In this document: in pieces, positions 48,701 through 51,376 of the stretch
Layout: each line of letters begins with the position of its first letter
Position numbering within the stretch: the stretch's first letter is position 1
Assembly: GCF_013167455.1 (NCBI RefSeq)
Contig: NZ_CP038328.1
From: Escherichia coli O157:H7
GTDB lineage: Bacteria > Pseudomonadota > Gammaproteobacteria > Enterobacterales > Enterobacteriaceae
Strand: one strand, 5' to 3'
Length of the DNA stretch: 64,000 nt
Program-made: the position numbers

Positions 48701-51376
48701 CAGTTGACTGGTGGAACCGACCGCATCCGCCATATCGACAATAGCTTGTGGTGATTCTGGATGCACCAGTATGGCAGCATCCGGGTATTCTTCTTGCAAG
48801 CGGGTTAACGCCTGAGTCTTAAACTCATCATGCACAATGCAGGCACCCTGCCAGCATAAAATGTCTGCGCCCGTCTTTTTTTGCACGTAACGCCCCAGAT
48901 GTTTGTCGGGTGCCCAGATGATTTTTTCACCCAAACTATCCAGATGATCAATAAGTTCGACGGCAATGCTTGAAGTTACCACCCAATCTGCCCGCGCTTT
49001 TACCGCAGCAGAAGTGTTGGCGTAGACGACGACAGTACGATCGGGATGGGCATCGCAAAATGCGTTAAATTCTTCAACAGGGCAGCCGAGATCCAGTGAA
49101 CACTCAGCCTGAAGTGTCGGCATCAGAATTGTTTTTTCCGGACTGAGAATTTTGGCGGTTTCTCCCATAAATCTCACCCCAGCGACTAACAACGTAGAAG
49201 CGGGATGCTTTGCACCGAAGCGCGCCATTTCCAGAGAATCAGAAATACAGCCACCGGTTTCTTCTGCCAGTTGTTGAATTTCGGGATCGGTATAGTAGTG
49301 GGCAACCATCACCGCATTACGTTCTTTTAGCAGACGTTTTATCTTCTCGCGGTAATACGCTTTTTCATCAATGCTTAACGGCGTCGGCTTCGGGGGGAAA
49401 GGATAAATCGCCGTGTCTGGATCAAACATCACGCTCATCTTACCATCTCGTTTTACAGGCTTAACGTTAAAACCGACATTAGCGTGATATTCGCTGTTAT
49501 CGGTGTAATTTGTTTTATATGCTAAACAAGATAGTCGAATGGTGGGGAAAAGTCACTCGAATTACGTATGAGATGCCGAATGCCACACTTTGCGTCTTAT
49601 TCCTCCGACGTAAAGTTGTTTACGCAGCAAGCGCGGAGTATGTCATCAGGGTCAAGAATTGAAATTGAGAGATGCCTGAATAGCAAAAAAGCGCCTTTAG
49701 GGCGCTTTTTTACATTGGTGGGTCGTGCAGGATTCGAACCTGCGACCAATTGATTAAAAGTCAACTGCTCTACCAACTGAGCTAACGACCCATACGGGTG
49801 TTACCTGAAAGATTTCTACTCGGAACCAATCTTTAAAATTGGTGGGTCGTGCAGGATGACTCGCTTCGCTTGCCCTACGGGCCGTTGCTGACGCAACGTT
49901 ATCCTTCACGCTTAACATCTGAGTTTGATGTTAAAATTGGTGGGTCGTGCAGGATTCGAACCTGCGACCAATTGATTAAAAGTCAACTGCTCTACCAACT
50001 GAGCTAACGACCCGAGTGGTGGGTGATGACGGGATCGAACCGCCGACCCCCTCCTTGTAAGGGAGGTGCTCTCCCAGCTGAGCTAATCACCCGATACTGC
50101 GCTGGATACTACAAACTACTTCCACCGAACCCACCGTAATTAGTGGTGGGTCGTGCAGGATTCGAACCTGCGACCAATTGATTAAAAGTCAACTGCTCTA
50201 CCAACTGAGCTAACGACCCGGTGGTGGGTGATGACGGGATCGAACCGCCGCCCCCCTCCTTGTAAGGGAGGTGCTCTCCCAGCTGAGCTAATCACCCGAT
50301 ATTACGCTGGATACTACAACTAACTAGGTTAGTGGTGGGTCGTGCAGGATTCGAACCTGCGACCAATTGATTAAAAGTCAACTGCTCTACCAACTGAGCT
50401 AACGACCCACTTTTTCGTTGCTTTCGGTTTGTTTGATATCCCGTGGCAACGGCGGCATATATTACTGATTTCAGACTTGAGCGCAACAAAAATTTCGATG
50501 TAGATCACTCAACTGCTTATGATTCGCACGACACGACCAGAAATAATGCGACTTCTGGTCGTGTGTTATGCATTACATCGCGTTCAGACGTTTTTGTGCC
50601 TGTTTAGCGCCATCAGTACCAGGGTATTTACTGATAACCTGCTGGTATACGGCTTTCGCTTTTGCGGTGTCACCTTTGTCCTGCATGATGACGCCGACTT
50701 TAAACATCGCATCTGCAGCCTTTGGTGACTTCGGATAGTTTTTCACTACCGAAGCAAAATAGTACGCCGCATCATCTTTTTTACCCTTGTTGTAGTTTAA
50801 CTGACCCAGCCAATAATTGGCGTTTGGCAGGTAAGTTGAATCAGGGTAATTTTTGATGAAATTCTGAAATGCCACCATTGCGTCATCCTGGCGGGATTTA
50901 TCCTGCACCAGCGCAATAGCTGCATTGTAATCCGTGTTTGCATCACCGCTTTTCACCGGCGCGCCAGCATTCGCAGTACCAGCATCAGCTGTCGGCGTCG
51001 TTGATGCCGCCGCACCGCTTTGATCACCGCTGGTTGATTGCGCCGCTGCACCACCGCTGCTGAGGCTGTCGATCTGCAACAGGATCTGCTTTTGCCGCTC
51101 CACGACCTGATTCAGTTGATACTGATTTTCCTGAATCTGACCACGCAGGGAATCAATATCGGATTGATTATCAGAGAGTTGTTGCTGGAGTTGGGTTAAA
51201 AGCTGGCTGTGAGCATTAGAAATACGCTCAAGTTGAATGACGCGGTCTTCGACCGAGCCTGAGCCGACACTACTGATTGGTGCCTGAGCAAAAGCGGCCC
51301 AGGGGGCCGCTATACCAACCAGTAACGACAGACTCAATAGTTGATGTCTGAAGTTACTGCTCATGCAATTCTCTTA

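Follow-up and report, generated by a model that had tools for sequence, protein, structure and literature searches.

Nucleotide 47 of valT in the lysT operon of Escherichia coli O157:H7: a U47G difference between tandem tRNA-Val(UAC) genes

Introduction

The DNA analyzed here, a stretch of 64,000 nucleotides from Escherichia coli O157:H7 (contig NZ_CP038328.1; hereafter the window), contains two tRNA-Val(UAC) genes within one cluster that are identical except for a single nucleotide in the variable loop. This raises the question of whether the difference is a natural allele or a sequencing error and, if it is natural, in which order the two genes changed, by which route, and with what consequence for the tRNA.

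Results and Discussion

The lysT operon in the window

Six tRNA genes, all on the minus strand, were identified in the window by ARAGORN, and their locus is the E. coli lysT operon, located between cpoB (ybgF) and nadA, in which Lys and Val genes alternate. The first gene of the operon is lysT (50333..50408), which encodes tRNA-Lys(UUU), and it is followed by valT (50222..50297; tRNA-Val(UAC)), lysW (50144..50219; tRNA-Lys(UUU)), valZ (50017..50092; tRNA-Val(UAC)), lysY (49938..50013; tRNA-Lys(UUU)) and a last tRNA-Lys(UUU) gene (49716..49791), detected by ARAGORN and annotated as lysZ in strain Sakai. The assignments of lysT, lysW and lysY were supported by ARAGORN, Rfam and the Sakai annotation, and those of valT and valZ by ARAGORN and Rfam. 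In the lysT operon valT is the first of the Val genes; the gene at 50222..50297 matches K-12 valT at 75 of 76 nucleotides, and the Sakai annotation at the homologous place is also valT. The valZ gene is identical to both valT and valZ of K-12, and the four tRNA-Lys(UUU) genes of the cluster are mutually identical.

Alignment with K-12 showed that the tRNA-Lys 3' end, ATCCTGCACGACCCACCA, is repeated in a spacer at 49840..49857 on the minus strand, where it forms the end of an RtT-like unit. The RtT RNA model of Rfam (RF00391) matched window positions 49840-50006 (minus strand, 55.1 bits), a region that comprises the 3' portion of a Lys gene and a spacer unit ending in the pseudo tRNA-Lys 3' end. 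Other strains have comparable units downstream of the operon, which RefSeq annotates as 'RtT sRNA'.

Direct reading of the sequence identified the operon terminator at 49685..49705 (minus strand), with the stem GCGCC/GGCGC, the loop CUAAA and a following U6 tail, and this stretch is identical to the one that follows lysQ in K-12. A scan for consensus promoters and terminators returned neither on the operon strand. The terminator (49685-49711, minus strand) was probably missed by the scan because pairing is possible between the U6 tail and the A6 that precedes the stem, in which case the scan extends the stem and is left without a tail. The sequence TTGCGC, followed after 16 nt by TAATAT (~50486-50459) and then by a GC-rich discriminator, was considered as a candidate promoter, but it is a weak candidate read from sequence alone and is not claimed here.

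The nucleotide difference between valT and valZ

The initial annotation had reported that the two tRNA-Val(UAC) copies differ at one position of the variable loop, G versus U, and both the ARAGORN coordinates and a direct comparison of the copies bore this out. The only difference is at tRNA nucleotide 47, which is G in valT (C on the plus strand, position 50251) and U in valZ (A on the plus strand, position 50046). The first of these positions is also a polymorphic column in an alignment of seven genomes, and at the second the same alignment has G in Sakai and EDL933. With a D loop of 8 nt and a variable loop of 5 nt, the linear position coincides with the canonical numbering, and the site lies within the variable loop in the context G44-G45-G46-N47-C48.

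Both Val genes are 76 nt long, and the change is a substitution. The U47 copy contains a run of five G, which U47G extends to six (tRNA positions 42-47; C6 on the plus strand, 50251..50256), so that the run of seven G claimed previously was corrected to G6 by a scripted run count. Both copies are recognized as complete tRNAs by ARAGORN and by Rfam, whose model RF00005 gives 65.9 bits for each of them against a gathering score of 29, and the G47 copy has the anticodon UAC at positions 34-36.

Reproducibility of G47 among assemblies

A homopolymer-associated error had been proposed as one possible origin of the G, in which case the true base at position 50251 would be A, as in the other copy. 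The site does adjoin a G/C run, and the assembly of strain 611 has a probable run-length error at exactly this run, in a valT of 75 nt. Homopolymer errors are typically indels, whereas the change in the window is a substitution that keeps the length at 76 nt. Since chance is the wrong test for a single-nucleotide difference between paralogues, reproducibility among assemblies was taken as the test, and G47 proved reproducible: among the matches listed, at least 20 independent complete O157:H7 genomes are 100% identical to the window over the 1001 nt of the locus, and it is this identity to other assemblies that supports the base at 50251. The combination of G in valT and U in valZ (G/U) was found at 100% identity over 1 kb in strains 9000, 10671, 155, FDAARGOS_293 and others, and strains 7.1_Anguil and Al Ain also match the window in this respect. 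Furthermore, G47 is present at valT in 136 complete genomes, including the reference genomes of Sakai, EDL933 and Xuzhou21, and the allele tracks a phylogenetic pattern. An error at 50251 is thereby refuted and retains next to no likelihood, and the natural allele, which the initial annotation had offered as the other possibility, is the reading followed below.

In O157:H7 strain 611 (NZ_CP038428.1), valT is annotated with 75 nt at 732-806 of the extracted locus, and its variable region, GGAGGGGGCGGCGG, contains one G fewer without U47 being present, on a G/G background. The likely cause is an indel error of the assembly at the homopolymer, and the G6 run is a spot where at least one public assembly probably has a wrong length.

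Frequency of the allele in E. coli

The exact G47 Val gene was found in 206 of 5,426 complete E. coli genomes, whereas about 96% of E. coli genomes have U47; most genomes contain five matching places for tRNA-Val(UAC). To count genomes by slot, the allele was linked to the valT slot and to the O157/O55-type spacer by means of a 95-nt query. On this spacer, valT has G47 in the 136 genomes mentioned above, 86-24 and 9000 being further examples, and U47 in 188 genomes, which include every O55:H7 strain among the matches listed as well as O157:H7 strains TW14359, EC4115, SS17 and LSU61. With an upstream-spacer query, G47 was located in the valZ slot of 117 genomes, including Sakai, EDL933 and Xuzhou21. 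At least 69 genomes have G47 in both slots, as calculated by inclusion-exclusion (136+10+12+117-206), and among the first 60 listed O157 genomes with G47 at valT, 46 were also in the list for valZ and 14 were absent from it. Queries extending into the 3' context (Val 20-76 plus CC or CTC plus Lys 1-36) were uninformative for slot assignment because separate Lys matches were stitched into places and the identity bands were inflated; the upstream-spacer queries were used instead.

A literature search for an earlier description of the polymorphism returned nothing relevant. The allele itself is not novel, as it lies in an annotated tRNA gene and G47 is already present in public reference genomes.

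Order of the changes at valT and valZ

The two genes were read directly in several genomes and, given as valT/valZ, were found to be G/G in Sakai, U/U in O55:H7 CB9615, U/U in O157:H7 TW14359 and G/U in the window; in K-12 MG1655 both genes have U47. Comparison with reference genomes, by which the initial annotation had proposed to judge the difference, thus confirmed the G47 base but not the difference between copies, since both copies have G in Sakai and EDL933. The derived allele is thus present in both paralogues in Sakai and EDL933 and not in the window, which is still G/U.

An alignment of ~34 kb around the locus in seven genomes (the window, Sakai, EDL933, CB9615, TW14359, 9000 and 7.1_Anguil) was used to polarize the changes. 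In this alignment G at valT is common to the window, Sakai, EDL933, 9000 and Anguil, with U in the O55:H7 outgroup and in TW14359, and G at valZ is restricted to Sakai and EDL933. A further derived character common to the latter two strains is a 30-bp deletion in the repeat region of tolA, the 30 bp being kept in the other five genomes; this deletion lies ~3.8 kb from the locus and could have been imported together with the valZ change. The window has no private difference in the alignment and is one SNP away from strain 9000.

The most economical order suggested by these sequences is U/U to G/U to G/G, with the window as the intermediate step; the polarity is based on a local 34-kb alignment of seven genomes with one supporting indel rather than on a whole-genome tree. 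In this order the ancestral state is U at both genes, as in K-12, O55:H7 and O157:H7 TW14359. The G arose in valT in the ancestor of the O157:H7 branch that contains the window, 9000, 7.1_Anguil, Sakai and EDL933, and valZ later became G as well in the Sakai/EDL933 sub-branch.

Other length differences were observed in the same alignment. The tolA polymorphism (window ~53888-53934) includes an extra 60 bp in TW14359 and an extra 48+3 bp in O55:H7, and the annotated tolA coding sequences are 1185, 1215, 1275 and 1266 nt long. A 6-bp in-frame deletion in zitB (window ~46720) is present in EDL933 alone, as compared with the window and the other five genomes.

The valT/valZ pair can be used as a marker with three states (U/U, G/U and G/G) that splits O157:H7 into branches and groups the window with strains of the 9000/10671/155 type, apart from Sakai, EDL933 and TW14359. 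The biological weight of the allele is small, and its practical value, as a lineage marker, is modest.

Recurrence of G47 and the origin of the change

G47 was also found outside the O157/O55 background. At valT it occurs in 10 genomes with an ST80-type spacer and in 11-12 genomes with the K-12-type spacer, PMV-1 and APEC O2:K1:H5 among the latter, and at valZ it occurs in the long-spacer strains O113:H21 FWSEC0010, 2014C-3061 and 98E11. When the G47 pattern alone was scanned, the exact 27-mer with G47 had one match, in Mixta tenebrionis, among ~100,000 species representatives. In 98E11, the first Val gene (1198-1273 of the extracted locus) has C27U, which converts the C27-G43 pair to U27-G43. 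Since this strain combines C27U in its first Val gene with G47 in valZ, several tRNA-Val(UAC) alleles are segregating in E. coli.

When primer and template are transiently misaligned at a homopolymer, a T next to a G run is expected to be replaced by G, by which the run becomes longer. The substitution beside the G5 run would fit such a mechanism, which would make position 47 a mutational hotspot, and a hotspot would explain the recurrence of G47 on unrelated backgrounds.

The step from valT to valZ may have been a short-patch gene conversion of one tandem paralogue by the other, or else the hotspot may have mutated a second time. A conversion tract would have been about 80 nt at most, since Sakai retains both the distinct 51-nt spacer and the CTC junction. 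Sakai and the window have no other difference near valZ in the 34-kb alignment and hence no co-converted flanking marker, so that conversion and second mutation would leave the same sequence; the instability of this repeat-rich operon favors conversion.

Predicted effect of nucleotide 47 on tRNA function

Nucleotide 47 is not known to contribute to the tertiary pairs of class I tRNAs. The valine identity elements listed are A73, A35, C36, G20, G45 and the acceptor-stem geometry, and position 47 is absent from this list (PMC9976931). All of them are intact in the G47 copy. The modified nucleotide acp3U47 is found in tRNA-Val(GAC) and not in tRNA-Val(cmo5UAC) (PMC7601589), and G47 therefore loses no known modification. 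With neither a listed identity element nor a modification at position 47, the G47 tRNA should still accept valine and decode GUN codons, and we infer that the allele is probably near-neutral in function. That the allele is stable in the 136 genomes and has also been copied into another gene argues that G47 is tolerated. The presence of U47 in ~96% of genomes, together with the single species match for the G47 context, could reflect weak purifying selection against it.

The predicted secondary structures differ in one respect between the alleles. With nearest-neighbor energies calculated on fixed structures, the cloverleaf has -29.8 kcal/mol for both alleles, and in a register-shifted anticodon helix G47 adds a C27-G47 pair, by which the predicted energy becomes -35.0 instead of -31.6 kcal/mol; minimum free energy folding returns no cloverleaf even for the wild type, and these fixed-structure energies serve as a caution only. 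G47 might carry some folding cost according to this model.

The same shifted register could be taken to mean that the G47 tRNA is a functionally different isodecoder, in which the longer G run allows CCUCCCUU (27-34) of the anticodon stem to pair with GAGGGGGG (40-47), and which was positively selected in O157:H7 through folding, TrmB methylation of m7G46, stability or tRNA fragments, first reaching fixation in valT and subsequently spreading to valZ in the branch of the Sakai/EDL933 type. If this were true, the shifted register could alter folding, the placement of m7G46 or tRNA turnover. The fixation of G47 throughout a large branch, its later appearance in the other copy within a sub-branch, its recurrence on several unrelated backgrounds and the in silico stabilization of the alternative anticodon-stem register by about 3.4 kcal/mol are all consistent with selection, as is the position of nucleotide 47 next to m7G46, a modification present in tRNA-Val (PMC13052159). 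However, a mutational hotspot combined with conversion explains the recurrence equally well, and the folding model misses the wild-type cloverleaf, so that its prediction weighs little. Moreover, G47 is the minority allele in E. coli, the U/U branches of O157:H7 (TW14359, EC4115) are well represented, and position 47 is not among the listed identity elements. We therefore regard positive selection of G47 as very unlikely.

It is also conceivable that the G47 copy, one of five Val(UAC) genes, is a redundant gene drifting toward a pseudogene. The redundancy itself, the unstable gene number (six versus seven) and unstable spacers of the operon, and the existence of other single-copy variants, such as C27U in 98E11, could be cited for such decay. 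The copy has nevertheless a single loop change with all stems and identity elements intact, the allele has remained stable in 136 genomes without acquiring anything further, and instead of being lost it was copied into another gene, which makes decay an extremely unlikely explanation.

In conclusion, the analysis indicates, with a probability of roughly 0.9, that G47 is a genuine, vertically inherited U47G allele of valT that is near-neutral, and that the window represents the intermediate G/U state.

Comparison with known tRNA gene clusters

The K-12 operon, lysT-valT-lysW-valZ-lysY-lysZ-lysQ, has the same synteny as the window, with cpoB upstream and nadA downstream, and the same gene order and terminator. 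Its valZ is identical to that of the window at all 76 positions, and the single mismatch in valT is G47 in the window for U47 in K-12. The K-12 operon has seven tRNA genes, whereas the window and all O157:H7 genomes that were read have six, and the Lys-to-Val spacers, which are 135 and 149 nt long in K-12, are 35 and 51 nt long in O157 (100 and 98 nt shorter). Copies of the tRNA-Lys 3' end (ATCCTGCACGACCCACCA) border every length difference of the operon relative to K-12. O55:H7 CB9615 keeps the seventh gene, which is a Lys gene, and all O157 genomes that were read are without 109 bp at ~49774 of the window.

Sakai (ECs_R0039 and ECs_R0041) and EDL933 share with the window the architecture of the operon, its spacers and G47 in valT, and differ from it in that valZ also has G47 (G/G versus G/U). 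Outside E. coli, the tRNA-Val(UAC) of Mixta tenebrionis lies in a homologous Lys-Val-Lys cluster and has a native G47, together with three further differences, C16U, G20U and U59G, of which G20U affects a minor identity element in E. coli.

Unlike classic gene conversion, the locus has no co-converted flanking marker, and no conversion has taken place in the window itself. It nevertheless resembles concerted evolution by gene conversion in that a derived base is found in one paralogue and later in its neighbor 205 bp away, and in that the lysT locus visibly recombines between its repeats. The valT/valZ pair is a small example of how tandem tRNA paralogues become homogenized stepwise.
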